This document shows, one piece after another, positions 6,649 to 50,006 of a stretch of DNA of 64,000 nucleotides (its first letter is position 1; each line of letters begins with the position of its first letter). The stretch is from the NCBI GenBank assembly GCA_964453605.1, contig CAYVOI010000001.1, forward strand, positions 310,029 to 374,028. The letters run 5' to 3'. Under the pieces are notes generated by a model. It was not told the DNA's origin. It was given only the letters and a program-made list of their open reading frames with translations, and ran no database searches. Source of the stretch: an uncultured Gammaproteobacteria bacterium. Its GTDB lineage: Bacteria > Patescibacteriota > Patescibacteriia > Veblenbacterales > UBA10138. The translations under genes and the position numbers were made by a program.

Positions 6649-6724
6649 GCCGTTGTAGCTCAGCTGGTAGAGCAACTCCATGGTAAGGAGTAGGTCGCCG
6701 GTTCAATTCCGGCCAACGGCTCCA
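6649..6724 (+). tRNA. tRNA-Thr (anticodon GGU)
   Basis: Cloverleaf: acceptor gccgttg/caacggc, D arm agctcagctggtagagc, anticodon loop atGGTaa, T arm gccggttcaattccggc, encoded CCA. Confidence 0.85.
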
Positions 6725-6792
6725 GAAGGGGTGGGGTAAATGGCGCAACTCCATGCTTGCCCAGTAGGGAATTGCAAAGCGATTCTGCTTCT

Positions 6793-6836
6793 GGGGTAAG
6801 GAGTAGGTCGCCGGTTCAATTCCGGCCATCGGCTCC
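6793..6836 (+). repeat. Partial duplicate of tRNA-Thr(GGU) 3' portion (anticodon-loop 3' side to CCA), 1 mismatch
   Basis: ggtaaggagtaggtcgccggttcaattccggccatcggctcca is near-identical to 6682..6724. No matching 5' acceptor strand upstream. Confidence 0.75.
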
Positions 6837-6928
6837 AGGCAGCGGGCCAAGCCGGCCACGGGCCGTAAAGCCCTCGCGGGCCCACGGCCCTTTACGAGGC
6901 TCCACGTTCCTTTTACGTTTTTGGTCTC

Positions 6929-7014
6929 GGGTGGGTATCGAAGTGGTCAAACGAGACTGACTGTAAATCAGTTGCCTTCGGGCTTCGCAGGTTCGAATCC
7001 TGCCCCACCCACCA
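6929..7014 (+). tRNA. tRNA-Tyr (anticodon GUA), class II long variable arm
   Basis: Acceptor gggtggg/cccaccc, anticodon loop ctGTAaa, long variable arm, T arm gcaggttcgaatcctgc, encoded CCA. Confidence 0.85.
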
Positions 7015-7087
7015 CGTAAAGCTCGCACAGCTCGCCATGTGGTATTAAAATAGTTGTAAGTGGTGCACCCCGTAGAGGTGCGTCAGC

Positions 7088-7123
7088 ACCTTCTTCGGGG
7101 TTCGAATCCTGCCCCACCCACCA
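7088..7123 (+). repeat. Partial duplicate of tRNA-Tyr 3' end (variable-arm remnant, T arm, acceptor, CCA)
   Basis: ggggttcgaatcctgccccacccacca is identical to the 3' 27 nt of the tRNA-Tyr at 6988..7014. Confidence 0.8.
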
Positions 7124-7191
7124 TTCGGCTCGCTTCGCTCGCTCATGGTAAACCAAGCGAGTCGAATGCCCCGAGCCGAGCCGAGGGGTTG
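7123..7191 (+). repeat. Hairpin plus conserved motif (gagtcgaatgcc ccgagccgagccgaggggttg) shared with the tRNA-Pro locus at 31928..32030
   Basis: 13-bp stem attcggctcgctt/aagcgagtcgaat with one G-U pair. The motif gagtcgaatgcc at 7159..7170 matches 31989..32000 exactly. Confidence 0.6.
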
Positions 7192-7206
7192 AAAAACAAG
7201 CGTGCT

Positions 7207-7407
7207 ATGGGTACACTATACTACGTTTATATGATGCGCTGCTCCGACGGTACGTTCTACGTCGGGATGACAGTCAACCTCGCGGCACGAGAAGCTCGTC
7301 ACATTCGAGGTGATGGCGCGAAGTTTACCAAGTCACATGGAGGAGAACGTATAGTATATCGAGAGCCACATGCTACGTATTTAACTGCACGGCGTAGAGA
7401 GATATAG
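7207..7407 (+). CDS. Stand-alone GIY-YIG nuclease domain protein (YhbQ/UPF0213-like)
   Basis: YYVYMMRCSDGTFYVGMTVNLAAREARH is a GIY-YIG motif; an ERIVYRE glutamate is present. About 66 aa from ATG 7207; the track ORF starts further upstream at an alternative codon. Confidence 0.7.
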   Translation: MGTLYYVYMMRCSDGTFYVGMTVNLAAREARHIRGDGAKFTKSHGGERIVYREPHATYLTARRREI

Positions 7408-7464
7408 ATAAAGAACTGGCGCCGCGAGAAGAAAGAACGTTTACTTTTAGGCCTTAAGCCGTAG

Positions 7465-7539
7465 GCCAGCGTAGCTCAGTGGTAGAGCAACTGTTTTGTA
7501 AACAGTAGGTCGTCGGTTCGACCCCGACCGCTGGCTCCA
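7465..7539 (+). tRNA. tRNA-Thr (anticodon UGU)
   Basis: Acceptor gccagcg/cgctggc, D arm gctcagtggtagagc, anticodon stem actgt/acagt with loop ttTGTaa, T arm gtcggttcgaccccgac, CCA. Flanked by gccttaag direct repeats. Confidence 0.85.
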
Positions 7540-7576
7540 GCCTTAAGTCATCTTATCCGTTTTTGTTTGCCCTCGT

Positions 7577-7732
7577 ATGTCGCAAGATAACCTCGTTAAG
7601 CTTGAGTGCAGTGTGTGTCACCGCATTACCTACCACACCTTCCGCAACAAGAAGAAGGTCAAGGCGCGGCTGGAAACCATGAAGCACTGCCCGTGGTGCA
7701 AGAAGCACACGCTCCACAAGGAGACGAAGTAG
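7577..7732 (+). CDS. rpmG: 50S ribosomal protein L33 (zinc-ribbon type)
   Basis: 51-aa ORF not in the ORF track (<60 aa). MSQDNLVKLECSVCHRITYHTFRNKKKVKARLETMKHCPWCKKHTLHKETK matches the L33 pattern (C-x2-C...C-x2-C and KHT.HKE.K). Confidence 0.85.
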   Translation: MSQDNLVKLECSVCHRITYHTFRNKKKVKARLETMKHCPWCKKHTLHKETK

Positions 7733-7757
7733 CTTACTACTGCCACGTCTCCCGTTT

Positions 7758-7831
7758 GGGGGGTTCGTTCAGTGGTAGGACTTCGGTCTCCAAAACCGAT
7801 AACGTGGGTTCGATTCCTACACCCCCTGCCA
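7758..7831 (+). tRNA. tRNA-Trp (anticodon CCA)
   Basis: Acceptor ggggggt/accccct (G1-U72 wobble), anticodon stem tcggt/accga with loop ctCCAaa, T arm gtgggttcgattcctac, encoded CCA. Confidence 0.85.
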
Positions 7832-8091: not shown

Positions 8092-8508
8092 ATGCGAGCA
8101 GAGGCACTAAAGTATGTAGCTATACTAGGGTTGCTGGCTTTTCTGGCCGTGGGAGTTTTTGCTGCTGCTCATATTATGGAAATGCCGATGAATGAGCACG
8201 GTGTAATGACCGGCTGTTGGTTCACGGGCATGGCTGGCCCCTGCCCCATGACCCTGAGTGAACATGTGGCGTCTTGGCACAGCCTTTTCACTAGCGTTCC
8301 GACTACATCCGACACTTTGTCGCTCGTTGTACTCGTTCTAGCGGTATTGCTGGTAGTCCCGCGTTGGTTCGAACGATACCGCAGGTGGGTGGCGGCACGA
8401 CTGGCACTTCTCCCCAGACTGTACCTGAAGTATCACCCCAACCTGACTCTCGCCACTTCGCTACGGGAAGCATTTTCTCAGGGCATTCTCAATCCTAAAG
8501 TGTACTAG
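8092..8508 (+). CDS. Small membrane protein (138 aa)
   Basis: Two or three TM segments. No recognisable motif. Confidence 0.45.
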   Translation: MRAEALKYVAILGLLAFLAVGVFAAAHIMEMPMNEHGVMTGCWFTGMAGPCPMTLSEHVASWHSLFTSVPTTSDTLSLVVLVLAVLLVVPRWFERYRRWVAARLALLPRLYLKYHPNLTLATSLREAFSQGILNPKVY

Positions 8509-8528
8509 CTGGTAGCCAATCTTTATGC

Positions 8529-8554
8529 TTGCGTCTTCCGACGCAGGTTTTTTC
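8529..8554 (+). terminator. Rho-independent terminator
   Basis: tgcgtc-ttcc-gacgca followed by ggtttttt. Confidence 0.7.
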
Positions 8555-8577
8555 GTGACATTACTTACTAAAATTCT

Positions 8578-9396
8578 ATGGAAACATTTCCTCAAACCCA
8601 ATATTCAGAATCCAATTCCGTTCCTCAAGGTGCTGTACCAAGTATGTTCGCCGGTGCCTCGCCTAAACTCACCTTCATCATGGGTTTGGTGACCGGTATC
8701 GCCGTCGTTAGCCTGGCAGGCTTTGTACTAGCTGCCAGCTACGGCTTATCCGGTCGCGCTAGCAGTGCGCTCGGCTCTGCAACTGTAGCAGTCCAAGGCA
8801 CCACCACACCTACACCCTCTGCCGCACCCTCACCCACTTCGCCACCAGCTGCGCCAGGCAAGGCAAACGTCACCCTTAAGCCCGACGACCACATCCGTGG
8901 TCCCAAGGACGCCAAGGTAGTGCTCGTTGAGTACTCTGACCTTGAGTGCCCCTTCTGCAAACGCTTCCACCCCCAAATGCAGCAGCTCATGCAGGAGTTT
9001 TCCGGTCAGGTGGCCTGGGTGTACCGCCACTTCCCGCTCTCATTCCACCAGAACGCCGAGAAAGAGGCTGAGGCCGCAGAGTGCGTGGGTAAGCTCGGTG
9101 GTAATGATAAGTTTTGGGCTTATGTGAACAAGATATTTGAACGTACGACCTCGAACGGTACTGGCTTTGCTTTAGATAAACTAGGGCCGCTGGCGGCAGA
9201 AGTAGGGGTTTCCCAGGGTAAGTTCCAAAGCTGCCTTGATAGCGGCGAGTTTACGGCCCACGTGCAGCAGGACGAGCAGGAAGGCACGGCCTTTGGTGTG
9301 AACGGCACCCCCACTACGTTCGTGAACGGGCAGCCAGTTGAAGGCGCGGTACCCTATGAGCAGTTGAAGCAGGTGGTGCAGAGCTTACTGAAGTAG
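8578..9396 (+). CDS. Membrane-anchored DsbA-like thiol:disulfide oxidoreductase
   Basis: N-terminal TM helix, a Pro/Thr/Ser linker, and a thioredoxin-fold domain with CPFC active site (LECPFCKRFHP). DsbA-family pattern. Confidence 0.7.
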   Translation: METFPQTQYSESNSVPQGAVPSMFAGASPKLTFIMGLVTGIAVVSLAGFVLAASYGLSGRASSALGSATVAVQGTTTPTPSAAPSPTSPPAAPGKANVTLKPDDHIRGPKDAKVVLVEYSDLECPFCKRFHPQMQQLMQEFSGQVAWVYRHFPLSFHQNAEKEAEAAECVGKLGGNDKFWAYVNKIFERTTSNGTGFALDKLGPLAAEVGVSQGKFQSCLDSGEFTAHVQQDEQEGTAFGVNGTPTTFVNGQPVEGAVPYEQLKQVVQSLLK

Positions 9397-9417
9397 TCTA
9401 AAAGCCACAGAGGTAGT

Positions 9418-9984
9418 ATGTCACCCACTATGAGCACTCCACTAGTCGCCATAGGCCGAGCCCTGGCTACCGTATTTCGCCAGTGGCGGTATATCGTGCT
9501 GACCGTAACAGTAGCCATGCTACTGTTCTTACTCGTGGCTTGGATACGCAACTTCTGGTTCCTGTGGTATGTCTTCACTACGCCCGCCTTCAGTTGGGGC
9601 ACTCGGTTTAGCCTGCTCAGTGGCACATTCGCCATGTTTAGGCTCAACACCACGCTGCCTCGCCTCGTATTGTCCGTAACGCTGGTGGTGCTCGCGGGCA
9701 TTAACGTGAGCCTGCTTGTGTTCTACCTCAAGCGCCGGCTGACCCAAGCAGGTGGGGTGGGCACCAGCCTCCTTGGTACGGTGCTCGGCGTACTTGGCAT
9801 TGGCTGCGCTTCGTGTGGTTCGGTTATTCTCACCTTGCTCATCGGCTTTAGCGCCACCGCGAGCTTCTTAGGGTTACTCCCGCTCAGGGGAGCTGAGTTT
9901 GGCCTGGCGGGAGTAACCCTGCTCTTAGGTTCCATCTACCTTACAGCCAAGAAAATTAACAATCCTGTGCTATGTAAAATTTAA
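9418..9984 (+). CDS. Polytopic membrane protein with an intramembrane G-C-x-x-C-G motif
   Basis: 188 aa, about 5 TM helices. The only internal cysteines are GIGCASCGSV inside a predicted TM segment. A C-terminal Cys is also present. Confidence 0.45.
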   Translation: MSPTMSTPLVAIGRALATVFRQWRYIVLTVTVAMLLFLLVAWIRNFWFLWYVFTTPAFSWGTRFSLLSGTFAMFRLNTTLPRLVLSVTLVVLAGINVSLLVFYLKRRLTQAGGVGTSLLGTVLGVLGIGCASCGSVILTLLIGFSATASFLGLLPLRGAEFGLAGVTLLLGSIYLTAKKINNPVLCKI

Positions 9985-10003
9985 GTGTTATACCTGTACA
10001 CCC

Positions 10004-10702
10004 ATGACTAAGCGTTCCATAACAACATTTATCATTGGCGCCATCATCCTTACGGCAAGTTTGATAGCTGGTTCGTTCTTACTTATCTCTCGTGGCCAAG
10101 GTGACGTAGTGAGTACCGAAGCTTTGGCAGCAGATAAGGCCATCTATGACAGTATCCCAACCGAAGCGGGTAAGGTGAATTTCATGCGGCAGAGCGGGAG
10201 CCTAACCAAAGCCGTTAACCCCGAACTCGTAGACCTCGACAGCCAAGTTATCTCCTGTGACCCGAGCGTGGATGGTTTATTGGGGGGCAACCCCACCACC
10301 GGCGGCAGCTGCGCGGCCGGACCAACGGCACTCAAGAGCACCCAGGGCATGTACCTTAGCGGTCAGTGCTGTAGCACTATAACCGACCCTACCGAGTACC
10401 ATGAGAACCTGGAAAAACTACAAGCCTACAAGAGTATGCCCGATATTGTGCTCGACCCCATGCACACGCCTATTGCTTTAGCGAAACAGTGGATTGACTA
10501 CGACCATGCCACGACCCTCACCGCTGACGAGCAGAAGGTGTATGACCAAGCCTATGCTATCTCCAAAGAGAAACCCTGCTGCTGCAAGTGCTGGCACTAC
10601 TTTGTGAACGAAGGCATTGCCAAGAAGATGATTAAGGACGGTACGTTCAACGCGCAGCAGATTGCCGACTACTGGGACGCCTCGGATATCTGTGGTGCGT
10701 AG
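10004..10702 (+). CDS. Membrane-anchored extracytoplasmic Cys-rich protein (10 Cys, including CC and CCCKC clusters)
   Basis: N-terminal TM anchor, then a soluble domain with GQCCST and KPCCCKCWHYF motifs. Confidence 0.45.
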   Translation: MTKRSITTFIIGAIILTASLIAGSFLLISRGQGDVVSTEALAADKAIYDSIPTEAGKVNFMRQSGSLTKAVNPELVDLDSQVISCDPSVDGLLGGNPTTGGSCAAGPTALKSTQGMYLSGQCCSTITDPTEYHENLEKLQAYKSMPDIVLDPMHTPIALAKQWIDYDHATTLTADEQKVYDQAYAISKEKPCCCKCWHYFVNEGIAKKMIKDGTFNAQQIADYWDASDICGA

Positions 10703-10718
10703 TACTCGCCTCTGAAGC

Positions 10719-10749
10719 AAAAAGCAGCTCCAAGATGGAGCTGCTTTTT
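10719..10749 (+). terminator. Rho-independent terminator
   Basis: aaaaagcagctcc-aagat-ggagctgcttttt. Confidence 0.7.
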
Positions 10750-10825
10750 GCTGATAACGATATAACATTTTCATGTATCTATGATAAACTTTTGGTAGGT
10801 CTAATTCTGGTAAGCATCAGAACAT

Positions 10826-11449
10826 ATGTACATCTGCCCCATGCATCCGGAAGTGCGCCAAGAGGTGCCCGGCCGCTGCCCTAGGTGTGGTATGAAGCTC
10901 GTACCCGCTGAGGCCGTGCCAGTAAGGTCAGCACCAAGCGATGATCGCGGCTTAGGAACGTTAACGTGGAAAAGCTACGTCCCCCTGATTGTTATCATCG
11001 GACTCATTTTGTGCGTGACAATTGTAGTCTCGTGGACTGATTATATGCTCGGCAGGTTCTCCATATTTCAGTCGGTCGCCTACTTTATGACGGGATTCTT
11101 TATCGTGTTTGCCGGCTTCAAGCTCATGGACCTACCTGGTTTTGCTGAAGGCTACTCCACCTACGATCTTTTGGCCCGGGCCTGGTTTGGCTATGGTTAC
11201 GTTTACCCCTTCATCGAGCTTACCTTTGGGCTGCTTATGCTCGCTGGTTTGCATCAGGCTTGGTTACCGTGGACTGAGTTTAGCGTTATGGCACTGAGCG
11301 GCTTGGGTGTGGCTATAAAACTAGCCAAGCGCGAGCCATTTATGTGCGCCTGCCTGGGCACGTTCCTCAAAGTGCCGCTTACCTACGTGACCTTGGTTGA
11401 AGATTTTGGCATGGCGGCCTTAGCGTTGGCGCTGGTGTTATTCCGATAG
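10826..11449 (+). CDS. Heavy-metal-binding domain (CPMHP...CPRCGM) fused to a MauE/DoxX-like 4-TM domain
   Basis: N-terminal MYICPMHPEV...PGRCPRCGMKL matches the HMBD found on Cu/Ag efflux components. The C-terminal hydrophobic domain resembles the MauE/DoxX family. Confidence 0.55.
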   Translation: MYICPMHPEVRQEVPGRCPRCGMKLVPAEAVPVRSAPSDDRGLGTLTWKSYVPLIVIIGLILCVTIVVSWTDYMLGRFSIFQSVAYFMTGFFIVFAGFKLMDLPGFAEGYSTYDLLARAWFGYGYVYPFIELTFGLLMLAGLHQAWLPWTEFSVMALSGLGVAIKLAKREPFMCACLGTFLKVPLTYVTLVEDFGMAALALALVLFR

Positions 11450-11465
11450 GTTACTCGCATTTCGT

Positions 11466-11496
11466 CATGGAACCTTTCGTACGAAAGGTTCCATGG
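11466..11496. terminator. Perfect 14-bp palindromic hairpin
   Basis: ccatggaacctttcg-tac-gaaaggttccatgg. No T-run follows, so terminator function is uncertain. Confidence 0.4.
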
Positions 11497-11524
11497 TTAA
11501 AGTTAGCCATAGTTATGTTATGCT

Positions 11525-11565
11525 ATGTCAAGTAAACTTGACATGGGATTTTTGTACTTTATACT
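11525..11565 (+). promoter_or_regulatory. Sigma70-like promoter (TTGACA-16-TATACT) with an 8-bp inverted repeat (ATGTCAAG-n4-CTTGACAT) overlapping the -35, upstream of msrB
   Basis: ttgaca at 11538..11543, tatact at 11560..11565. The palindrome at 11525..11544 is a likely operator. Confidence 0.55.
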
Positions 11566-11598
11566 CTAAGTAGAGCCTAATTTATAACCAATAAGGCC

Positions 11599-12000
11599 AT
11601 GCCAGACAAAATGGTAAAAACCGAGGAAGAGTGGAAACAGCTCCTCACCCCTGAGCAGTACCGTATTTTGCGGCAGAAGGGGACTGAGGCACCTTTTTCG
11701 GGCGAGTACGCTCAAGACCATAGCCCCGGCATGTTCGCCTGTGCCGCCTGTGGACAGCAGTTGTTTTCGTCCGATGCCAAGTTTGATTCCGGCACAGGCT
11801 GGCCAAGCTTTGACCAAGCTATCCCTGGTACCATAGAAATGTACCCTGATGACAGCCACGGCATGCACCGTGTGGAGGTAACTTGTACTCGCTGTGGTAG
11901 TCACCTAGGACATGTCTTCGAGGATGGTCCACGAGACACCACGGGGCAGCGGTTTTGCATCAACTCAGCCTGCTTAAGGCTCCAACCAAAGAAGTCGTAA
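11599..12000 (+). CDS. msrB: Peptide-methionine (R)-S-oxide reductase
   Basis: SelR/MsrB motifs: two CxxC zinc pairs (CAACGQQLF, CTRCGSHLGHVFEDGP) and GWPSF. Confidence 0.9.
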   Translation: MPDKMVKTEEEWKQLLTPEQYRILRQKGTEAPFSGEYAQDHSPGMFACAACGQQLFSSDAKFDSGTGWPSFDQAIPGTIEMYPDDSHGMHRVEVTCTRCGSHLGHVFEDGPRDTTGQRFCINSACLRLQPKKS

Positions 12001-12006
12001 CGCAGC

Positions 12007-12705
12007 ATGCTCCAAGTTCTCTTTGCACTGCTAGCCGGAATACTAACCATTGCGGCACCGTGTATTCTGCCGCTTTTGCCAGTGCTGCTGGGTACATCAG
12101 TTGGGCACCGCAGCAAGACCCGGCCTGTGTTTATAGTACTGGGGTTTATTATAGTTTTTTCACTGGCTGGGTTGCTGCTGGCAACACTAAGCACGAAATT
12201 AGGACTGAACCCAAACACCCTCAGGTTGGTTGCTATTGTTGTACTGGCTTTGTTTGGGGCGCTGTTGCTGTGGCCACTGCCGTTTGAGCTCATAGCAGGC
12301 CGTCTTAGTGGCACGTTTGCCAAGGTGGGTGCAGAGGCCAACCAAGGACAGGGGAACTTGAGTGGGTTTGTGCTTGGTATGACCTTGGGGTTGGTGTGGA
12401 CGCCCTGTGCTGGGCCAGTCTTAGGGACCGTACTCACGCTGGTGGCGCTGCAGCGTGAGCTTACTACAGCCGGGATACTGCTTACCGCCTATGCTATCGG
12501 GGCTGCTCTGCCTATGCTGGCTATTGCCTACGGCGGTCAGTACCTGACGGCTAAAGTCAGGGTACTGACTCGATATACCGGCGTGTTACAGCGTACGTTC
12601 GGGGTGCTCATCATCACCCTCGCGGTAGCGCTCTACTATAACTACGACACTAAGCTCTACGCCGTCCTCCTCGAACACTACCCAACGTTTAACCCTAAGC
12701 TCTAG
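12007..12705 (+). CDS. ccdA: CcdA/DsbD-family thiol-disulfide transmembrane electron transporter
   Basis: 6-TM protein with a conserved Cys in TM1 (AAPCILP) and TM4 (WTPCAGP). Confidence 0.75.
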   Translation: MLQVLFALLAGILTIAAPCILPLLPVLLGTSVGHRSKTRPVFIVLGFIIVFSLAGLLLATLSTKLGLNPNTLRLVAIVVLALFGALLLWPLPFELIAGRLSGTFAKVGAEANQGQGNLSGFVLGMTLGLVWTPCAGPVLGTVLTLVALQRELTTAGILLTAYAIGAALPMLAIAYGGQYLTAKVRVLTRYTGVLQRTFGVLIITLAVALYYNYDTKLYAVLLEHYPTFNPKL

Positions 12706-12709
12706 CACT

Positions 12710-13762
12710 ATGCCTAACAAAACTATTGTGCTCATTACTGCCGCTGTCGTTATACTACTCGTGGCTGCTGGGTTGTACCTTGACCAAAAGGGCAAACATC
12801 CACTTACCAATACAGCGTCCGTCACCGGAACAGAGCCTTCTGCGTCAGCTACTACCATGGGCAAGGTGGAGTTTCAGGACTACGGCACGGCGCCGGAGTT
12901 TACCGGCATTAGCCACTGGCTAAACACCGAACCACTTACCATGGAGAGCCTCCGGGGTAAGGTAGTCCTCATCGATTTTTGGACGTACTCATGCATTAAC
13001 TGCATCCGCACCCTGCCCCACGTAACCGAGTGGTACAATACGTACCAAGACAAGGGTTTTGTGGTTGTGGGGGTACACACACCAGAGTTTGCTTTTGAGA
13101 AAGAAACCGGCAATGTGCAAGCGGCGATTGATCACTTCGGCATTCACTACCCCGTGGCGCAAGATAATGACTACGCCACCTGGGGAGCCTACAGCAACCA
13201 GTACTGGCCGGCTGAGTACTTGGTGGACAAGCAGGGTAGGGTGAGGTATGTGCACTTTGGTGAGGGGAACTACGACCACACCGAGAACGCTATTCGTGAG
13301 TTGCTTGGCTTAAACGATGAGGCAGAGGCAGCCGCCTCGGCTGACAACCTCACTAACGTGGGCTCGCCTGAAATGTACTTTGGTACTGACCGGCTGCAGA
13401 ACTTGGTACGCACACAAACTGCGAAAGCTGTAGCAACCGCCTATGCCTTCCCTAAAGATCTACCGCTTAATACCTTTGCCCTTGAGGGCAGCTGGCAGTT
13501 CTCGCCACAGAGCCTAACGCTCGCAGGGGAGGGAGGTGAGCTACGGCTAAAGTTTCACGCCGGCAAGGTGCACCTGGTGGCCGCGAGCCCAACTTCACCA
13601 GCCGAAGTTACCATTACCGTTGATGGTAAACCCCAGCCTACGGTTACGGTGAGTCAGGCCGAGCTCTACACCTTGTTTAGCTCAGCTGACTACACCGACC
13701 ACGTAATAGACATCAAAGTTCAGGGCCCGGGGTTTCAAGCCTTCACCCTCACCTTTGGCTAA
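12710..13762 (+). CDS. Membrane-anchored TlpA/ResA-like thioredoxin (redoxin family) with a C-terminal extension domain
   Basis: N-terminal TM helix. Redoxin fold with WTYSCINCIRTLPH (CxxC). About 150 aa of extra C-terminal domain. Confidence 0.7.
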   Translation: MPNKTIVLITAAVVILLVAAGLYLDQKGKHPLTNTASVTGTEPSASATTMGKVEFQDYGTAPEFTGISHWLNTEPLTMESLRGKVVLIDFWTYSCINCIRTLPHVTEWYNTYQDKGFVVVGVHTPEFAFEKETGNVQAAIDHFGIHYPVAQDNDYATWGAYSNQYWPAEYLVDKQGRVRYVHFGEGNYDHTENAIRELLGLNDEAEAAASADNLTNVGSPEMYFGTDRLQNLVRTQTAKAVATAYAFPKDLPLNTFALEGSWQFSPQSLTLAGEGGELRLKFHAGKVHLVAASPTSPAEVTITVDGKPQPTVTVSQAELYTLFSSADYTDHVIDIKVQGPGFQAFTLTFG

Positions 13763-15694: not shown

Positions 15695-16417
15695 ATGGTA
15701 ATTATCTCTGCCCTCATCACGTTCCTATCCACCTTAATTGGTGGCTTGCTCGCGCTGCGCTACAAAGGCAAGCTTAAGTTGGTTCTGGGGTTTACTGCTG
15801 GCGTGCTCCTGGCAGTAGTAGCGTTTGATATTCTACCCGAGGTTATTGAGCTCACCGCGAAAACTGGGGTTCAGGCCCATAAACCCATGTTAGCGTTGGT
15901 GTTGGGGTTCCTGATTTTCCACGTCTTAGAGAAAGCCCTCCTCATTCACCATGCCCAAGAGGCGAGCTATGGCAAACACCGCCACCCCTCGGTAGGGTTG
16001 CTCTCGGCTCTAGCCCTGTCGGGGCACTCGTTTCTTGATGGTGTAGGGATAGGGCTTGGGTTCCAGGTTTCTTCAGCGGTGGGCTTACTCGTAGTGGTAG
16101 CGGTAGTTGCTCACGATTTCAGCGACGGTATGAACACCGTGTCGCTGATGTTAGTAAACAAAAACACCGACCGCAGGGCCCTCGGGCTCTTACTACTCGA
16201 CGCTCTCACACCCACCCTGGGAGCTGCTTCGACGTTCTTCTTCACCCTAACTGAGCCTGCACTGCTCTTGTACCTCGGGTTTTTTGCTGGTTTCTTGCTC
16301 TACATAGGCGCCTCGGACATACTCCCTGAGGCACACAGCGAGGATTCTTCCTGGAAAACGATAGCCATGACCGTGCTGGGGGTGGTATTCATTTTTATCG
16401 TTACCCGATTTGTCTAG
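15695..16417 (+). CDS. ZIP-family divalent metal (zinc) transporter
   Basis: 8-TM pattern, a His-rich loop (HHAQEASYGKHRH), and the ZIP signature GHSFLDGVGIGLG / VAHDFSDG. Confidence 0.75.
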   Translation: MVIISALITFLSTLIGGLLALRYKGKLKLVLGFTAGVLLAVVAFDILPEVIELTAKTGVQAHKPMLALVLGFLIFHVLEKALLIHHAQEASYGKHRHPSVGLLSALALSGHSFLDGVGIGLGFQVSSAVGLLVVVAVVAHDFSDGMNTVSLMLVNKNTDRRALGLLLLDALTPTLGAASTFFFTLTEPALLLYLGFFAGFLLYIGASDILPEAHSEDSSWKTIAMTVLGVVFIFIVTRFV

Positions 16418-19373: not shown

Positions 19374-21134
19374 ATGAACATACTTACCCGTTTGTGGCAG
19401 CGTAAAGCTCTTGTGGGGCTTGTCACCGTGGTACTTGTTGGGGCAGGTTACTATGCTTATGCCCGTGGCAAAACTACCAGTGCCGCCCCGCGCTACGTTA
19501 CGGCTCAGGTTACGCGAGGTACATTGAGTGTTTCACTGAGTGGCACGGGGCAGGTAGCAGTTTCGAGCCAGCTTGACCTTAAGCCTAAGGCGTCTGGTGA
19601 CGTGGTTAAGGTGTTCGTTACCCAGGGGCAGAAGGTTACCGCTGGCCAGGTACTGATCCAGCTTAATACCCGAGACGCTGACAAGGCAATTCGCGATGCT
19701 CAAACTAACATTGAGTCGGCTAAGCTCGCTTTGCTCAAACTGCAGCAGCCGGCTGATGACCTCTCACTGCTCCAGGCTCAGAATGCTCTGGTGCAAGCTC
19801 AGGCGGGCAAGCAAAAAGCCACCGACGTCTTAGCTCAAGACTACGAGAGCGGGTTTAACACCGTAACCAGCACCTTCCTTAACCTGCCAACCATTATGGT
19901 GGGGCTACAAGATACGCTCTTGGGCACTTCCCTGGGCACCGCTGGGCAGACAAACAAAGATTACTACATCGACGCTCTTAAGCTGATTGATAACAAAGTC
20001 TACCAGTACGCTGATGATACCAACCAGAGCTACCAAGCAGCGCGTATGGTCTACGATGCCAATTTCCAGCACTACAAGGTAACTGACCGTTCGGCTCCAC
20101 CTGCCACCATCGAGGCGCTACTCACCGAAACGTACACCACTACGCAGGCCATAGCCCAAGCGGTAAAGGATGCTAACAACTTAATTCAGTTCTACAACGA
20201 CACACTTACCCAGCGGAGCCTAAAACCAAACCCCGGTGCTGCTACCTACCTTACAAACCTTACCACTTACGCTAGTCAAACTAACTCGGCGCTCACAAAT
20301 GTACTGAGTGCTAGAACAACACTCCAAACTGATAAAGACGCGTTAGTAGCTGACGACCAGTCGATTGCGGAAAAAACTGCTTCGCTCACGAAGCTCAAAG
20401 CCGGTACTGATCCACTGGACATTCAGTCACAGCAGCTCGCCATCACGCAGCGTGAAAACGCTCTACGTGATGCTGAAGAGGCGCTAGCGAACTACACTGT
20501 GCGGGCACCGTTCGGCGGTGTAGTGGCGGCCGTTACGACCAGAGTCGGGGACACGGTTTCTACCGGCACATCCTTAGGCACACTCATAACTACCGAACGC
20601 CTGGCCGATGTTACCCTGAACGAGGTAGACGTGGCTAAGGTAAAGCTGGGGCTGAAAGCGGTGTTGACGTTTGATGCTATACCAGACCTGAGCCTTAGCG
20701 GCCAGGTGGATGATATTGCGGCTTTAGGCACGGTGAGCCAAGGGGTGGTGTCGTACGATGTTAAAATTGGTTTTGATTCGCAAGACGACAGAATTAAAGA
20801 CGGCATGAGTGTGGCGGCGGCTATTATCACCGATGTTAAACAAGACGTGCTCATGGTGCCAAATGCGGCTGTGAAAACCCAAGGTACAGCCGGTTCCTAC
20901 GTGCAGGTGATGGTGAATGGCGCACCCGAGCGGAGGCCGGTGGAGGTCGGGGCTGCTAACGACACGGAGACCGAGGTGTCGGGGAATATTAGCGAAGGCG
21001 ACGAGGTGGTGACTCAGACTATTACCTCTACCACTACATCAAGCACCACGAACACTCAACAGCGCGGTGGCGTGGGTGGTGGCCTGTTTGGCGGTGGTAC
21101 GTTCCGTATAGGCACTGGCGGCCCTGGCCGCTAG
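19374..21134 (+). CDS. HlyD/MacA-family periplasmic adaptor (membrane fusion protein) with a long coiled-coil insert and Gly-rich tail
   Basis: N-terminal TM helix, biotinyl/lipoyl-like hairpin (VKVFVTQGQKVTAGQVLIQL), beta-barrel domain (YTVRAPFGGVVAAV), C-terminal GGVGGGLFGGG. Confidence 0.7.
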   Translation: MNILTRLWQRKALVGLVTVVLVGAGYYAYARGKTTSAAPRYVTAQVTRGTLSVSLSGTGQVAVSSQLDLKPKASGDVVKVFVTQGQKVTAGQVLIQLNTRDADKAIRDAQTNIESAKLALLKLQQPADDLSLLQAQNALVQAQAGKQKATDVLAQDYESGFNTVTSTFLNLPTIMVGLQDTLLGTSLGTAGQTNKDYYIDALKLIDNKVYQYADDTNQSYQAARMVYDANFQHYKVTDRSAPPATIEALLTETYTTTQAIAQAVKDANNLIQFYNDTLTQRSLKPNPGAATYLTNLTTYASQTNSALTNVLSARTTLQTDKDALVADDQSIAEKTASLTKLKAGTDPLDIQSQQLAITQRENALRDAEEALANYTVRAPFGGVVAAVTTRVGDTVSTGTSLGTLITTERLADVTLNEVDVAKVKLGLKAVLTFDAIPDLSLSGQVDDIAALGTVSQGVVSYDVKIGFDSQDDRIKDGMSVAAAIITDVKQDVLMVPNAAVKTQGTAGSYVQVMVNGAPERRPVEVGAANDTETEVSGNISEGDEVVTQTITSTTTSSTTNTQQRGGVGGGLFGGGTFRIGTGGPGR

Positions 21135-21150
21135 AGCTACTCCCCACACC

Positions 21151-21840
21151 ATGATTGAGTGCAAGAACATAACCAAGGTCTACCAGAGCGGGGGCACTGC
21201 TACCACAGTGCTTAAAGGTGTGTCGTTTACTGTTCGAGACGGCGAGTTTGTGGCTATCATGGGCCCTTCGGGCAGCGGTAAGAGCACCCTCATGCACATT
21301 TTAGGCGGGCTCGACACGCCAACGAGCGGTACCTACGTGCTCGATGACAAGGACGTGTCTACACTTTCGGACGACGATCTGGCGGAAGTGAGAAAGAACA
21401 GCATCGGGTTTGTGTTTCAAGCCTTTAACCTGCTCCCTCGCGCCAGCGTTTTACGGAACGTGAGCTTGCCGCTGGTCTACGCCAACATTCCCCGTGCCGA
21501 GCGCGAGCAGCGTGCCCGTGAGGCTCTGACACAGGCGGGTATGGAGGAGGAGCGGTTCCACCACCTTTCAAACCAGCTCTCCGGTGGGCAGATGCAACGT
21601 GTGGCAATAGCGCGGGCCTTGGTTAATAATCCAAAACTCGTGCTGGCTGATGAACCAACCGGTAACTTGGACACTAAGACTGGCGAGGTGGTGCTGAAAA
21701 CTTTTCAAGAGCTTAACGCCCAAGGCCACACCATTGTGCTCATTACCCACGAGCACGACGTAGCGAGCCACGCGCGGCGGATAGTTTCGATTCGCGATGG
21801 CAACATTGTAGACGACCAAATGGTTACCCAGCATCTATGA
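21151..21840 (+). CDS. ABC transporter ATP-binding protein (MacB/LolD type)
   Basis: Walker [10 protein letters not shown], signature [15 protein letters not shown], Walker [13 protein letters not shown]. Confidence 0.85.
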
Positions 21841-23060
21841 AGTTTGTCGATTTGCTAGAGGAAACTTACGCTGCTATCGCGGTCAATAAGGTGCGCTCTG
21901 GACTTACCATTTTGGGTATTGTGATAGGTATTGGCTCGGTTATCGCCATGGTGGCGATTGGTCAAGGTGCCCAAGGGTCTATTCAAGCCAGCATTCAGTC
22001 CATTGGTTCTAACCTCATTATTGTGGTGCCAGGGTTTCAGCGTGGGGTGGGGAGCCAGGTGAGGACCGGCCGCGGCGGCGCCACCACCTTGACCCAAGAC
22101 GATGCCGACGCTATCGCTGCCCAGGTCACGCTGGCTCGCGCGGTCGCGCCCGAGAACTCACGGCGGTACCAGGTGACCACGCGCGGCCAGAACACCAACA
22201 CCCAGGTGGTGGGGACCGTGCCCCAGTACCCCGAAGTTCGCAACGTTACGGTGGATAGTGGCTCGTTCATAACTCAGGAACAAGTAGTAAGTGGCGCCAA
22301 GGTAGCCGTGCTCGGGCCCACCACCGTGAGCGACCTGTTTGGTGAGGGGGCCGACCCGATTGGTGAAACCGTACGCATCAACCGTATCGATTTCCGGGTT
22401 ATTGGCGTGACGCGGGCTAAGGGCGGTAGTGGGTTTGCGAATCCTGACGACGTGGTATTTGTCCCGCTCACGACCGCCGAGCACTATCTGGCGGGTGACA
22501 GCTATGTCACCACTATAAGCGTCGAGGCACAGGACCAGGGCAGCATGAGCACTATTCAGCAGCAGATAACGGAGCTATTGCTTCAGCGTCACAAGATTTC
22601 AGACCCTACCCAAGCTGATTTCCAAGTGCTGAACCAGTCTGACATTGTGGCTGCTGCATCGAGTGCTACGGGCATCTTTACCATTCTGCTGGCGTCCATC
22701 GCCGGCATTAGCTTGCTGGTGGGGGGCATTGGCATTATGAACATGATGTTAACCACGGTAACCGAGCGCACGCGGGAGATCGGGCTCCGTAAGGCGATTG
22801 GCGCACACCGTGGCGACATCAGTACTCAGTTCTTGCTCGAGGCGGTGATGCTGACGCTGGTTGGCGGTTGTTTAGGTGTATGTTTGGGGTGGCTGTTGGC
22901 GTGGGGTGTAACCAAGTTTGCTGCCATAACCACAACCGTGTCGGCCAGTTCGGTGCTACTGGCGTTTGGTGTTTCGGCTGCTATTGGTATTGTGTTTGGG
23001 TACTACCCAGCGCGGCGAGCGGCACGCTTGAACCCAATTGAGGCACTCAGATACGAGTAG
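21837..23060 (+). CDS. ABC transporter permease (FtsX/MacB-type, with MacB periplasmic domain)
   Basis: N-terminal TM helix, large periplasmic domain, C-terminal FtsX 3-TM bundle. Overlaps the ATPase stop. Confidence 0.8.
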   Translation: MKFVDLLEETYAAIAVNKVRSGLTILGIVIGIGSVIAMVAIGQGAQGSIQASIQSIGSNLIIVVPGFQRGVGSQVRTGRGGATTLTQDDADAIAAQVTLARAVAPENSRRYQVTTRGQNTNTQVVGTVPQYPEVRNVTVDSGSFITQEQVVSGAKVAVLGPTTVSDLFGEGADPIGETVRINRIDFRVIGVTRAKGGSGFANPDDVVFVPLTTAEHYLAGDSYVTTISVEAQDQGSMSTIQQQITELLLQRHKISDPTQADFQVLNQSDIVAAASSATGIFTILLASIAGISLLVGGIGIMNMMLTTVTERTREIGLRKAIGAHRGDISTQFLLEAVMLTLVGGCLGVCLGWLLAWGVTKFAAITTTVSASSVLLAFGVSAAIGIVFGYYPARRAARLNPIEALRYE

Positions 23061-23098: not shown

Positions 23099-23812
23099 AT
23101 GAACAAAATGATACTAACTGCAGCCGTGGCTGCAGTGGTAGCAGGTGGTGGAGCTTTCTACGCTGGCATGCAGTACGCCAAAGCCCAAGCTCCAAGTAGA
23201 GGAGCCGGTCAGTTTCAACAGTTTGGTGGCGGTCAGGGTGGACGCCGAAACGGGAGCCCCAGCGCCGGTGGGTTTGTGGGTGGTGAAATTTTAAGCAAGG
23301 ACGACAAGAGCATCACGGTTAAAATGCGTGACGGCAGTACCAAGATAGTGTTTTTTTCAAGCTCCACCTCAATCGGGAAGGTGGCAGAGGGTACAGCCGC
23401 CGACCTCGCGGTGGGGAAGCAGGTTACGGTTATGGGTATGGCGAATAGCGACGGCAGTGTCACAGCCCAAAGTATTCAGCTCCGGCCTGCTATGCCCATG
23501 CCGCAGGCGAGTAGCGCGCCAACCACTACCCAAGCAGGCGTAAAACAGTTTACCGTGGTGGCGCAGAACTTTGCCTTCGCCCCAGGCGAAATTCGAGTAA
23601 AGAAAGGGGATACGGTTAAGCTTACGCTCCAGAACCAAGACGGCTTCCACGACCTGGTGATAGACGAGTTCAACGTGCGCACGCCGCGTATTGGCCAAGG
23701 GCAAACCGCTGACGTGCAGTTTGTGGCCGATAAAACCGGCACCTTCCAGTACTACTGCTCGGTCGCGAACCACCGGGCTATGGGCATGTGGGGTAACCTT
23801 GTGGTGGAGTAG
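23099..23812 (+). CDS. Membrane-anchored cupredoxin (type-1 copper, plastocyanin/amicyanin-like) with an N-terminal beta-domain
   Basis: C-terminal FHDLVIDEF ... YYCSVANHRAMGM supplies His, Cys, His and Met copper ligands. Confidence 0.65.
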   Translation: MNKMILTAAVAAVVAGGGAFYAGMQYAKAQAPSRGAGQFQQFGGGQGGRRNGSPSAGGFVGGEILSKDDKSITVKMRDGSTKIVFFSSSTSIGKVAEGTAADLAVGKQVTVMGMANSDGSVTAQSIQLRPAMPMPQASSAPTTTQAGVKQFTVVAQNFAFAPGEIRVKKGDTVKLTLQNQDGFHDLVIDEFNVRTPRIGQGQTADVQFVADKTGTFQYYCSVANHRAMGMWGNLVVE

Positions 23813-28021: not shown

Positions 28022-28564
28022 TTGAAAACTAAACAGCAGATATTCTTGATTCATGGGATTTATTTCTATGAAGGTGCTATGCCTGGTATAGGTCATGAGC
28101 CAGGTATCGGTGAAATCGTGGTCACGCGCCATACTGGAGCGTACTCCCTCTTTAGTGGGGTAATTGCCCCGCACAAGGATGATGGAACCACGTACGGTGG
28201 TGAATTGTCAGACTATTTCGGTGAGTCCACGCTTAGTGAAGTTGAAATCTCTGACAATACGCTGTCGTTCCTCAAGACCTACAAGGTGAGTGGCTACACT
28301 AGTCTCTATACTTTCAAAAGAGCCGGTCCGTTATGGTTCGGGTCATGGGGTTCACGCAGTGGCTCAGACAATGGTTGCGCCAGGTGCATCGTCCATTCGG
28401 TTACTGAGAGCTTCTTCCATGTTGAGGATCCGAAAGTTCTGGATGTGCCGACGGAGGTTGCCGAGAAAGTACAACCCCCCTGCGATCAATGCGGTAGCAT
28501 CATGATTCGCAAAGGAAGCGAGTGCAAGTGCCCTAACTGCGAGGAAACAAAATCAGACTCTTAG
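28022..28564 (+). CDS. Hypothetical protein with a C-terminal zinc ribbon (TTG start)
   Basis: TTG at 28022 with aaggag 7 nt upstream. C-terminal CDQCGS...CKCPNCEE. Flanked by AT-rich DNA. Confidence 0.4.
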   Translation: MKTKQQIFLIHGIYFYEGAMPGIGHEPGIGEIVVTRHTGAYSLFSGVIAPHKDDGTTYGGELSDYFGESTLSEVEISDNTLSFLKTYKVSGYTSLYTFKRAGPLWFGSWGSRSGSDNGCARCIVHSVTESFFHVEDPKVLDVPTEVAEKVQPPCDQCGSIMIRKGSECKCPNCEETKSDS

Positions 28565-49490: not shown

Positions 49491-50006
49491 ATGCCTAAGA
49501 GAACGTCGTGTGCAGTTTGCGGAAAACCGAGAGGGAAGTTTCAGCTGGTGACGTTCATAGATGCCGATGGTAGTGCGCATGAAGGGCAGTCACTCTGTGG
49601 TACATGCAGCGCCGGTCGTTCATTCATTTGTGAACGCAGGCACCCCTGTGTCGTCTTTATCGACGCTACGTCTATCTGCCCCGTGTGCGCCGAACGGCAC
49701 GCTAACCACCTGTGCAAACGTGACTTCGCACTGCTCCGCAGGGAGTGGCAAGCCATTACTCAGTGCATCCCGGCTGAAGATGTGGCCGAGTTCTTGAAGC
49801 TCGTTAGGACTGCTATCAATAACGATAGCGCCTCGCCCGAGCTTTGCTTGATCTCTGCCGTGGTTGCTGCCGCTCAGCGTTTTGGTACTACCGTTTCTCG
49901 GGTAGAGCAGCAGCTCCGGCGCGAAACCATGGCTACGAAATCTATCGTTACGGCACTACTTCCCAGCCGTAACCCCGCCAAACGATACAAACCTAAACAA
50001 CCCTAG
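49491..50006 (+). CDS. Hypothetical protein with an N-terminal multi-Cys zinc-ribbon region
   Basis: CAVCGKP...CGTCSAG...CPVCAERH. Confidence 0.4.
   Translation: MPKRTSCAVCGKPRGKFQLVTFIDADGSAHEGQSLCGTCSAGRSFICERRHPCVVFIDATSICPVCAERHANHLCKRDFALLRREWQAITQCIPAEDVAEFLKLVRTAINNDSASPELCLISAVVAAAQRFGTTVSRVEQQLRRETMATKSIVTALLPSRNPAKRYKPKQP

Follow-up and report, generated by a model that had tools for sequence, protein, structure and literature searches.

Oxidoreductases of the DsbA type are encoded beside a membrane protein in several familiar gene pairs, such as dsbA-dsbB, bdbD-bdbC and dsbA-vkor, and in the bacterial VKOR-thioredoxin fusions a fifth helix leads to the partner domain on the outside. 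Bacteria of the candidate phyla radiation (CPR) and DPANN archaea represent a large share of microbial diversity. Disulfides are required in the pili and surface proteins that they expose, and most of these organisms are without respiratory quinones. To our knowledge, the recycling of DsbA and the handling of copper across a single membrane are essentially unstudied in these groups. Pairing of VKOR with DsbA has been described (PMC3792642). In the Scs system, copper-induced, Dsb-like thiol oxidoreductases that bind Cu+ act together with a membrane partner (PMC10907172), the partner proteins combine Cu+ binding with thiol redox activity, and ScsA is a small membrane protein with a CX2C motif that is possibly buried in the membrane (PMC10907172). 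Very tight binding of Cu(I) has been reported for ScsC-type proteins (PMC8900818; PMC10907172). Here, we describe a locus in a 64,000-nucleotide stretch of DNA (the window; positions 310,029 to 374,028 of contig CAYVOI010000001.1, assembly GCA_964453605.1, GTDB lineage Patescibacteriota) with two adjacent genes on the + strand, encoding protein A (9418-9984), a four-helix membrane protein of 188 amino acids (aa) from a family without a name, and protein B (10004-10702), a type II anchored ectoprotein of 232 aa. Both open reading frames (ORFs) stand as they were given in a preliminary description of the window.

The gene directly upstream of A (8578-9396, + strand) encodes a membrane-anchored, DsbA-like thiol:disulfide oxidoreductase (Thioredoxin_4 4.1e-29, DSBA 2.1e-21) with a CPFC active site at 8947-8958, and B is followed by the gene of a membrane protein in which an HMBD domain is fused to a MauE/DoxX-type domain (10826-11449, + strand; HMBD 5.1e-13, MauE 2.1e-9), with a CAC motif at 11345-11353. 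The genes for the DsbA-like protein, A, B and the HMBD-MauE fusion are likely one operon of a kind that belongs to copper-homeostasis islands in CPR bacteria, DPANN archaea and Thaumarchaeota. By analogy with described systems, we give a probability of about 40% to the reading that A, B and the DsbA-like protein would be a non-homologous counterpart of the copper-stress thiol relays of the Scs and DsbD type, in which B would serve as a Cu(I)-thiolate protein. The DsbA-like gene and A are 21 nt apart in the window, A and B 19 nt, and B and the HMBD-MauE gene 123 nt. Terminator-like hairpins lie at 8527-8548, between the DsbA-like gene and the gene of a small membrane protein upstream of it (m138, described below), and at 11523-11546, with a promoter-like site (11538-11565) ahead of the gene for MsrB. 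These short gaps and flanking sites place A and B within a likely operon of the DsbA-like gene, A, B and possibly the HMBD-MauE gene, the latter probably being its final gene.

To compare gene surroundings, we used two sets of loci, one seeded with B in GTDB genomes (L001-L080; the B loci) and one seeded with A in JGI metagenomes (L082-L161; the A loci), for which neighbouring ORFs were called and labelled by hidden Markov models, phmmer and blastp clusters. A DsbA-like gene is present in 67 of the 80 A loci, nearly always directly upstream of A and mostly with a gap of 1-14 nt, and it holds this position in 35 of the 50 A loci retained after dereplication at 90% identity. Of 125 homologues, 103 have CPFC as the active site. 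The nearest solved relatives of the DsbA-like protein of the window are 4n30, BdbD, ScsC and MdbA, and it is about equally close to BdbD and to the ScsC copper-resistance proteins (6nen, 6mhh, 4xvw and 4gxz), the ScsC structures being matched at E of about 1e-12 to 2e-9. A DsbA-fold protein in a copper-linked locus, as is characteristic of Scs-type systems, is thus found in the Thioredoxin_4/DSBA protein upstream of A.

The primary partner of A is this upstream DsbA-like gene, and A plus B is not the core unit. The preliminary description, which had taken A and B as the unit, left out the gene to which A is most tightly linked. The co-occurrence that it proposed to test is borne out as far as the recurrence of the pair is concerned, as 41 of the 80 B loci have a member of the A family no more than 8 kb from B, in most cases next to it and in the same orientation, and fusions of the two exist, but B is found in only 17 of the 80 A loci (8 of the 50 dereplicated ones). 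B is a frequent but non-obligate companion of A, present in about 16-50% of loci.

The relation between A and B is most directly seen in fused proteins. A and B form a single protein of 383-385 aa in five contigs, among which there are three or more distinct sequences (one such fusion is L109:5983-7140), in agreement with the pairing that had been proposed for them. A-like modules are additionally fused to two other cysteine-rich ectodomains, which we call clus11 (CDYCCG...CGCAH; L044, L048 and L077) and clus7 (PCCxNSTxFxDCNHG...GGGSCG; L002 and L079). Every fusion of A to an ectodomain has the same layout, with four helices, the conserved cysteine, a fifth helix and then the cysteine-rich ectodomain, and the equivalent of C186 of A is kept in all of the A-B, A-clus11 and A-clus7 fusions. 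The best argument for a joint function of A and B is that the A module has been joined repeatedly and independently to ectodomains related to one another. The PCCCKCW stretch of B aligns to the CC..CxCxH core of clus11 (hhalign probability 93.9%, E 1.6e-7, 66 columns), the common core of the two being a helix, CC...CxCxH and a second helix, while the match of B to clus7 is weak (hhalign probability 16.7%, E 1.5e-3). As separate genes, the two unnamed ectodomains occur for example at L067:4023-4706 (+ strand; clus11, with CEFCCG...CGCQHNPA and a C-terminal MVGGC) and at L001:14310-15308 (- strand; clus7, with PCCGNSTYFPDCNHG and a C-terminal GGGSCG[AV]).

The fusions also bear on the orientation of A. 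In P0201 (381 aa), A is followed by a C-terminal class I S-adenosylmethionine-dependent methyltransferase domain (Methyltransf_25/23/31) with no added helix, and the A-like fusion of L002 has an N-terminal zinc ribbon. Positive charges of A are located at the N-terminus, in the KRR loop at residues 104-107 and at the C-terminus. Together with the fifth helix of the A-B fusions, these features set the orientation of A, with both N- and C-terminus inside, which places C186 on the cytoplasmic side and both the P..G.E loop and the B domain outside.

A has exactly three cysteines, namely C130 and C133 in the intramembrane CxxC motif GIGCASCGS (9796-9822, + strand) and C186 (9973-9975, + strand), about ten residues past helix 4. 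In the AlphaFold2 model made from the family alignment (predicted local distance difference test score, pLDDT, 85.6), a helix at residues 118-125 is followed by a gap and a helix at 131-150, so that C130 sits in the break of helix 3 and C133 in the first turn after the restart at 131. The preliminary description was right in placing the CxxC within a predicted helix, here the broken helix 3, but did not count the third, invariant cysteine on the cytoplasmic side. LPLRGAE (9877-9897, + strand), with invariant P155, G158 and E160, lies in the outer loop that joins helix 3 to helix 4. Across 54 homologues of A, the invariant residues are G127, G129, C130, C133, S135, P155, G158, E160 and C186. 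A jackhmmer search of related loci yielded 128 A-like proteins, of which all have the CxxC, 112 have it followed by the P..G.E loop, and 108 of those 112 have a cysteine soon after helix 4. In Thaumarchaeota, a distant six-helix paralogue of A with PCCG and GCFVGCPTCAG (L026:5528-6439, L019:5720-6556 and L023:32-943) is encoded just upstream of the gene cluster DsbA, A, B.

B has nine cysteines, at residues 85, 103, 122, 123, 192, 193, 194, 196 and 230, and an N-terminal anchor (10022-10087). Its anchor, vicinal CC and CCCKC motif had all been recognised before, although ten cysteines had been counted. In the AlphaFold2 model from the family alignment (pLDDT 86.2), the CC (C122 and C123; 10367-10372, + strand) and the PCCCKC each stand directly ahead of a helix, at 129-142 for the former and at 197-212 for the latter, whose extended form PCCCKCW (P191-W197; 10574-10594, + strand) is the signature motif of the family. 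C122, C123, C192, C193, C194 and C196 are present in all 98 members compared and C230, the C-terminal cysteine of the core (in CG; 10691-10693, + strand), in 97, with C103 (76 of 98) and C85 (49 of 98) as accessory cysteines; of the signature, P191 and W197 are kept in 98 and K195 in 95. The residue conservation in A and B shows that the cysteine patterns are far beyond chance. Where B members have a tail after the last cysteine, it is His-rich in 50 of 54 cases (CGH[DE]EDTxMxxHY or CGGxGHxxGxGH), and Met-rich N-terminal segments are found in three members. Two members are fused to YtkA-like domains; in these woesearchaeal proteins (L050:5458-7143 and L051:184-1710), B is joined through a His-rich linker to an Ig-like region with a YtkA-like match (PF13115) and the motifs HVHPEDF and HTHG.

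The wider neighbourhood is one of copper genes. Of the 80 B loci, 47 have one or more genes for CopA, CopZ, CsoR, a multicopper oxidase (MCO) or a CupA-like cupredoxin with CxMxM at a distance of no more than 8 kb, as do 40 of the 80 A loci and, among the 36 A loci that span at least 8 kb, 25. The ATPases of the islands combine a CPC or CPH motif with YN(x)4P and MxxSS, and the Pfam labels include Cu-oxidase, Cupredoxin_1, Trns_repr_metal and Peptidase_M56. Around A, the commonest order is BlaI-type repressor, BlaR1/M56 sensor-protease, DsbA-like protein, A, a DUF3105-like protein and MCO, with CopA or CsoR nearby, and independent gene calls with Pfam labels gave Penicillinase_R, Peptidase_M56, Thioredoxin_4/DSBA, A, CsoR and, further on, an HMA-ATPase. 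Around B, further orders are CopZ-B-CopA, CopA-B and B-MCO-CopA. From this context, we infer that B may bind metal and that A and B may be redox-active, and the copper islands that carry them seem to be under stress regulation. The thiol or metal relay and the copper chemistry considered in the preliminary description fit loci in which a DsbA-like gene abuts A and copper genes are mostly present, whereas nothing supports its alternative of polysulfide chemistry, a context of sulfur metabolism being absent from the loci apart from one rhodanese (L164).

A BlaI/CopY-family repressor (Penicillinase_R) and a BlaR1-type M56 sensor-protease are encoded directly upstream of the DsbA-A pair in 25 of the 80 A loci; the repressor is without the cysteine motif of CopY. 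Loci with the two regulatory genes include L002, L018, L031, L089, L097, L122, L125, L143-L146, L151, L153-L155 and L164. Homologues of the HMBD-MauE fusion, whose HMBD has the pattern CPxH...CPxCGM, occur in 18 of the 80 A loci. Recurrent genes of the islands are those of an anchored His-rich protein (H.HP...HTHD..G.IH.E; HxH180) with 22-35 copies, the DUF3105-like protein, an anchored MarR-type regulator with an N-terminal cysteine motif and a 54-aa zinc-ribbon protein (DUF7128-like); examples of these recurrent genes are L033:1130-1594 (- strand), L079:5436-5990 (+ strand), L078:5748-6233 (- strand) and L049:3906-4070 (+ strand).

At least 321 homologues of B with 58-81% identity were found, and B is present at 269 confirmed places in GTDB species genomes, covering CPR bacteria, DPANN archaea and Thaumarchaeota. 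By record title, the 80 B loci kept comprise 38 bacterial ones, mostly CPR/Patescibacteria, and 42 archaeal ones from Woese-, Pace-, Aenigmat-, Nano- and Micrarchaeota and from Thaumarchaeota including Nitrosotalea and Nitrosotenuis. The B of the window is 50-60% identical to its closest copies in Thaumarchaeota and Pacearchaeota, the nearest copies in Thaumarchaeota (L019, L023, L026, L027 and L033) being 52-61% identical. Identities of 50-60% across domains point to a transfer of B or the island between bacteria and archaea. Large serine recombinase genes are found in 7-9 of the 80 loci. In ammonia-oxidising Thaumarchaeota (Nitrosotalea, Nitrosopumilaceae and Nitrosotenuis), the gene orders are DsbA-A-B or HxH180-B-A, the latter followed further on by CopA (L019, L023, L026, L027, L033, L035-L038, L063 and L074).

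Judged by their sequences, A and B are new protein families. Neither had a match in Pfam or NCBIfam at E≤1 apart from one regarded as noise, comparison with PDB sequence profiles returned nothing real (for A, nothing at E≤10), and the AlphaFold2 models of both were without a match among PDB folds. The view that neither protein belongs to a family that can be named is borne out, as the remote-homology and fold searches placed neither A nor B in a characterised family. The literature searched on DsbA in CPR bacteria, copper in Patescibacteria, DsbA and copper in ammonia-oxidising archaea and the partners of DsbB and VKOR held no description of the A or B families. The A family is large: a word-indexed search gave 79 homologues, and in a profile search across 1.84 billion representatives, 1,853 clusters matched at E≤1e-3, of which 1,262 still matched at E≤1e-10, the clusters being defined at 50% identity and the latter number being a lower bound. 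Among the close members that the profile search listed, there was no bridge to a known family.

Several known families were considered for the two proteins and rejected. For DsbB (PF02600), there was no profile match to A, which has only C130/C133 and C186 and no cysteine in either outer loop, and for VKOR (PF07884) there was neither a profile nor a fold match, and no loop cysteine pair. DsbD/CcdA (PF02683 and PF13386) gave no Pfam match and an hhalign probability of 3.4% against CcdA from related loci, and both membrane cysteines of A lie in one CxxC; not being of the DsbD family, A is not ScsB either. In the case of ScsA, the comparison was by named models only, and no ScsA-named model of Pfam or NCBIfam matched A. 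MerT, MerC and MerF were set aside with no Pfam or NCBIfam merT match, and hhalign gave no relation of A to MauE, to m138 or to CCmem, a MerT-like family. Another island protein (L015:9393-9881) has a weak match to merT_RC607 (E 0.015) and is unrelated to A (hhalign 2%). The motif of A resembles that of the HMA domain (PF00403) locally, but it lies within a membrane helix and there was no HMA match. A grouping of A with CopA, CopZ and HMBD proteins under single linkage came from short CxxC matches only, and stricter coverage was used for the clusters. With regard to B, metallothionein, Cox17 (CHCH), CopG (DUF411) and CueP were rejected with no profile or fold match, and an Fe-S protein is unlikely in view of the Sec-type anchor, the lack of a twin-arginine signal and the wrong spacing of the cysteines. 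Of ten island neighbours compared in the same way as A and B, the families m138, clus7, clus11, HxH180 and CCmem likewise had no match in Pfam or NCBIfam.

In the reading that we favour, A, B and the DsbA-like protein would form a cysteine relay across the membrane that follows the copper-stress logic of Scs or DsbD/DsbC. Reducing equivalents would enter A from the cytoplasm at C186 and pass through C130/C133 to the outside, where A and the CPFC oxidoreductase would maintain the cysteine cluster of B, and further thiols of the envelope, in a reduced or correctly paired state during copper stress. B would bind Cu(I) as a polythiolate cluster and could act as a sink or chaperone for copper that comes from CopA or is bound for the MCO, and the cysteines of the relay might convey Cu(I) in addition to electrons. 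A number of observations weigh against this relay. Electrons might flow in either direction, and the currency might be electrons or Cu(I). A has only three cysteines and no detectable relation to DsbD/CcdA (hhalign 3.4%), and the CcdA and TlpA-like pathway encoded next door in the window, and also in L164, would make a second reducing conduit partly redundant. Oxidases are frequent among anchored Thioredoxin_4 proteins, the solved relatives BdbD and MdbA being examples. Most A loci are without B, and as modelled, its cysteines may form either disulfides or a metal site. Some DsbA-A pairs stand outside copper islands, for example in L162 beside SOD and AhpC, and in the window itself no CopA, CsoR or MCO gene is found beside the operon, the metal-type genes being HMBD and that of a plastocyanin-like protein 12 kb downstream.

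Two of the alternatives assign another task to A. It could be an analogue of DsbB, VKOR or BdbC that re-oxidises the adjacent DsbA-like protein, which would then be an oxidase for ordinary oxidative folding of proteins in hosts mostly lacking quinones, with B or a B-like domain as extracytoplasmic relay or terminal acceptor, possibly in a copper-dependent manner. We consider this rather unlikely, even though the adjacency of the DsbA-like gene and A recalls the classical gene pairs, A is modelled with four helices and its CxxC in the outer half of one, and its linkage through a fifth helix to an outside cysteine domain is like that of the VKOR-thioredoxin fusions. Further, the CcdA-TlpA reducing pathway next door would leave the oxidising role vacant, as in Bacillus with BdbCD beside CcdA-ResA, the close solved relatives of the DsbA-like protein include the oxidases BdbD and MdbA, and DsbA-A pairs do occur away from copper islands. 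However, A is without the second cysteine pair in an outer loop that both DsbB and VKOR need, its conserved cytoplasmic cysteine would be needless for an oxidase, it matches neither protein in sequence or fold, and no electron acceptor is evident. The stress-type copper context with the BlaI/BlaR1 regulator argues for an accessory rather than a housekeeping function, and Thaumarchaeota, which also carry the module, have quinones. The conserved cytoplasmic cysteine and the stress-island context are the grounds on which the relay is favoured over a housekeeping analogue of DsbB or VKOR. An unlikely explanation, in our view, is that A is a conduit for Cu(I) in the manner of MerT or MerC, through which copper would pass without ATP from CopZ, a zinc ribbon or an HMBD to C186, the CxxC and the B cluster or the CPFC, in order to load extracytoplasmic cuproproteins such as the MCO or to buffer copper. 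This would suit the strong copper context and the order of a cytoplasmic cysteine, a membrane CxxC and an outside cluster, as well as the match of G-x-G-C-A-S-C in A to GMxCASC of HMA domains in the same loci, the fusion or adjacency of cytoplasmic metal-type domains (the zinc ribbon of L002 and HMBD-MauE), the MCO gene directly downstream of the DsbA-A pair in many loci, the His-rich and Met-rich extensions of B members and the tight Cu(I) binding of ScsC-type proteins. Yet A has no conserved Met, His or extra Cys to line a path for metal, E160 being the sole other invariant polar residue, and the coupling to the DsbA-like gene receives only a secondary explanation. CopA, which is usually present, already exports Cu(I); homology of A to MerT, MerC or MerF is lacking, as are MerA and MerR in the loci, and the likeness to HMA could reflect the geometry of a CxxC at the N-terminus of a helix.

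It is still less probable that A and B have nothing to do with each other, B being simply a disulfide-rich surface substrate of the DsbA-like enzyme in a shared mobile island and A an unrelated membrane protein. The absence of B from most A loci, and of A within 8 kb from about half of the B loci, would be in line with this, as would the frequent position of B beside CopA or CopZ where A is missing, and the serine recombinases (7-9 loci) and the spread across domains hint at mobile islands. On the other hand, A-like modules have been fused independently to the ectodomains B, clus11 and clus7, A and B are adjacent and on the same strand where both are present, and a set of seven cysteines that is invariant across bacteria and archaea, with a CCCKC run, is unlike structural disulfide patterns. 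A bolder extension of the relay, which we regard as possible but doubtful, would make A the founder of a new fold among transmembrane cysteine relays and the membrane protein, so far missing, by which DsbA-type enzymes are recycled, in either direction, in the quinone-poor CPR bacteria and DPANN archaea, and B, clus11 and clus7 a new class of Cu-thiolate ectodomains that couple copper and disulfide chemistry, for instance with copper as acceptor or donor in thiol oxidation.

All genes from 8092 to 13762 of the window are on the + strand. The first of them (8092-8508) encodes m138, an accessory island member of 138 aa with CWFTGMAGPC at 8215-8244 followed by PMT..EH; its Cys/Met/His motif can be written HG.MTGCWFTGMAGPCPMT..EH, and the consensus of its family is G.M..CPFMG..SLC.M...EH..WQS.F. 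Twelve related loci contain homologues, as a rule immediately before the DsbA-like gene, and some loci without A have the order m138-DsbA-B-HxH180. Its presence where A is absent suggests that m138 may be an alternative membrane partner. Downstream of the HMBD-MauE gene are MsrB (11599-12000; SelR 4.7e-51), CcdA (12007-12705; DsbD_TM 2.3e-15) and a TlpA/ResA-like protein with a Thioredoxin_10 domain (12710-13762; Thioredoxin_10 7.8e-33, AhpC-TSA/Redoxin), tightly packed with gaps of 6 and 4 nt. From its sequences, this set looks like an extracytoplasmic repair unit for methionine sulfoxide and thiols. The operon is a classical reducing pathway that adjoins the A/B unit and is context to it rather than part of it.

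Four clustered tRNA genes (6649-7831; Thr-GGT, Tyr, Thr-TGT and Trp) lie a short way upstream of the operon of A and B, and among them are an ORF containing a GIY-YIG nuclease domain (7060-7407) and the gene for L33 (7577-7732). Metal and envelope genes further downstream are those of a ZIP transporter (15695-16417), an HlyD/CusB-like adaptor (19374-21134), a MacB-type ABC pump (21151-23060), a plastocyanin/azurin-type protein with DUF5666 (23099-23812) and a P-type ATPase (24793-27405), which was rejected as a copper pump because it is a P2-type cation ATPase. Two more cysteine-rich ORFs have no Pfam match, one of 180 aa with seven cysteines (28022-28564) and one of 171 aa with 11 cysteines that begins with MPKRTSCAVCGKPRG (49491-50006).

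The analysis thus defines a large, previously unannotated membrane family (A) and a putative superfamily of cysteine-cluster ectodomains that is common to bacteria and archaea at 50-60% identity, within a reproducible operon grammar of BlaI, BlaR1, DsbA, A and either B or MCO, with CopA or CsoR further on. They supply candidate genes, ready for cloning, for the proposed relay of thiols and copper. If the relay proposed here is true, it would represent a third solution to the transfer of thiols across the membrane, beside DsbB/VKOR and DsbD/CcdA, and B would be a new type of extracytoplasmic copper-thiolate protein. The latter would be of relevance for ammonia-oxidising archaea, which depend heavily on copper.

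Among described systems, the nearest in logic is that of Scs in Salmonella and its relatives, which comprises ScsA, ScsB, ScsC and ScsD and has CueP as a client. It resembles the A locus in being copper-linked, in having a DsbA-fold CxxC protein beside a cysteine-bearing membrane partner and in tying the control of envelope thiols to Cu(I). A differs from ScsB/DsbD, however, as it has 188 aa and four helices, gives no DsbD_TM match and is without periplasmic thioredoxin-like domains, and B has no Scs counterpart and no sequence match to CueP or any other protein in the PDB. Regulation at A loci appears to be based on BlaI/BlaR1 or CsoR instead of Cpx, and the hosts are CPR, DPANN and Thaumarchaeota instead of enterobacteria. 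DsbB, VKOR and BdbC may be comparable to A in their four helices, a CxxC near the outer face and a gene adjoining that of a DsbA-like partner, whereas A has an invariant cytoplasmic cysteine instead of the second outer-loop pair of DsbB and VKOR, and use of quinones by A is unlikely in most host lineages. The mercury importers MerT, MerC and MerF with MerP are similar to A in their helix cysteine pair, cytoplasmic cysteine and outside partner with CxxC or many cysteines, and GIGCASC of A resembles GMHCASC of HMA domains in the same loci; the number and order of helices, the copper context and the absence of MerA and MerR set A apart, and DsbA is no part of mer systems. In B, the EKPCCCKC ahead of a helix is presumably comparable to the KPCCAC copper site of Cox17, and CopG holds a Cu4 cluster at CxCC. 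The seven invariant thiols of B, which is encoded beside CopA, CopZ and MCO, would suffice in number for a cluster of the Cu4S6 type. Unlike Cox17, metallothioneins, CopG and CueP, B is an anchored, extracytoplasmic and mostly helical protein of about 200 aa, and it has neither the twin Cx9C nor the thioredoxin-like fold of CopG or the fold of CueP. CcdA/DsbD with TlpA/ResA, encoded beside A and B in the window, conveys reducing power across the membrane to an anchored protein of thioredoxin fold, but CcdA has six helices with its two cysteines in separate PCxxP helices, as against one CxxC in one helix and a tail cysteine in A. An envelope relay for thiols and copper is a known kind of system, and what is new in A and B are the parts and their architecture.

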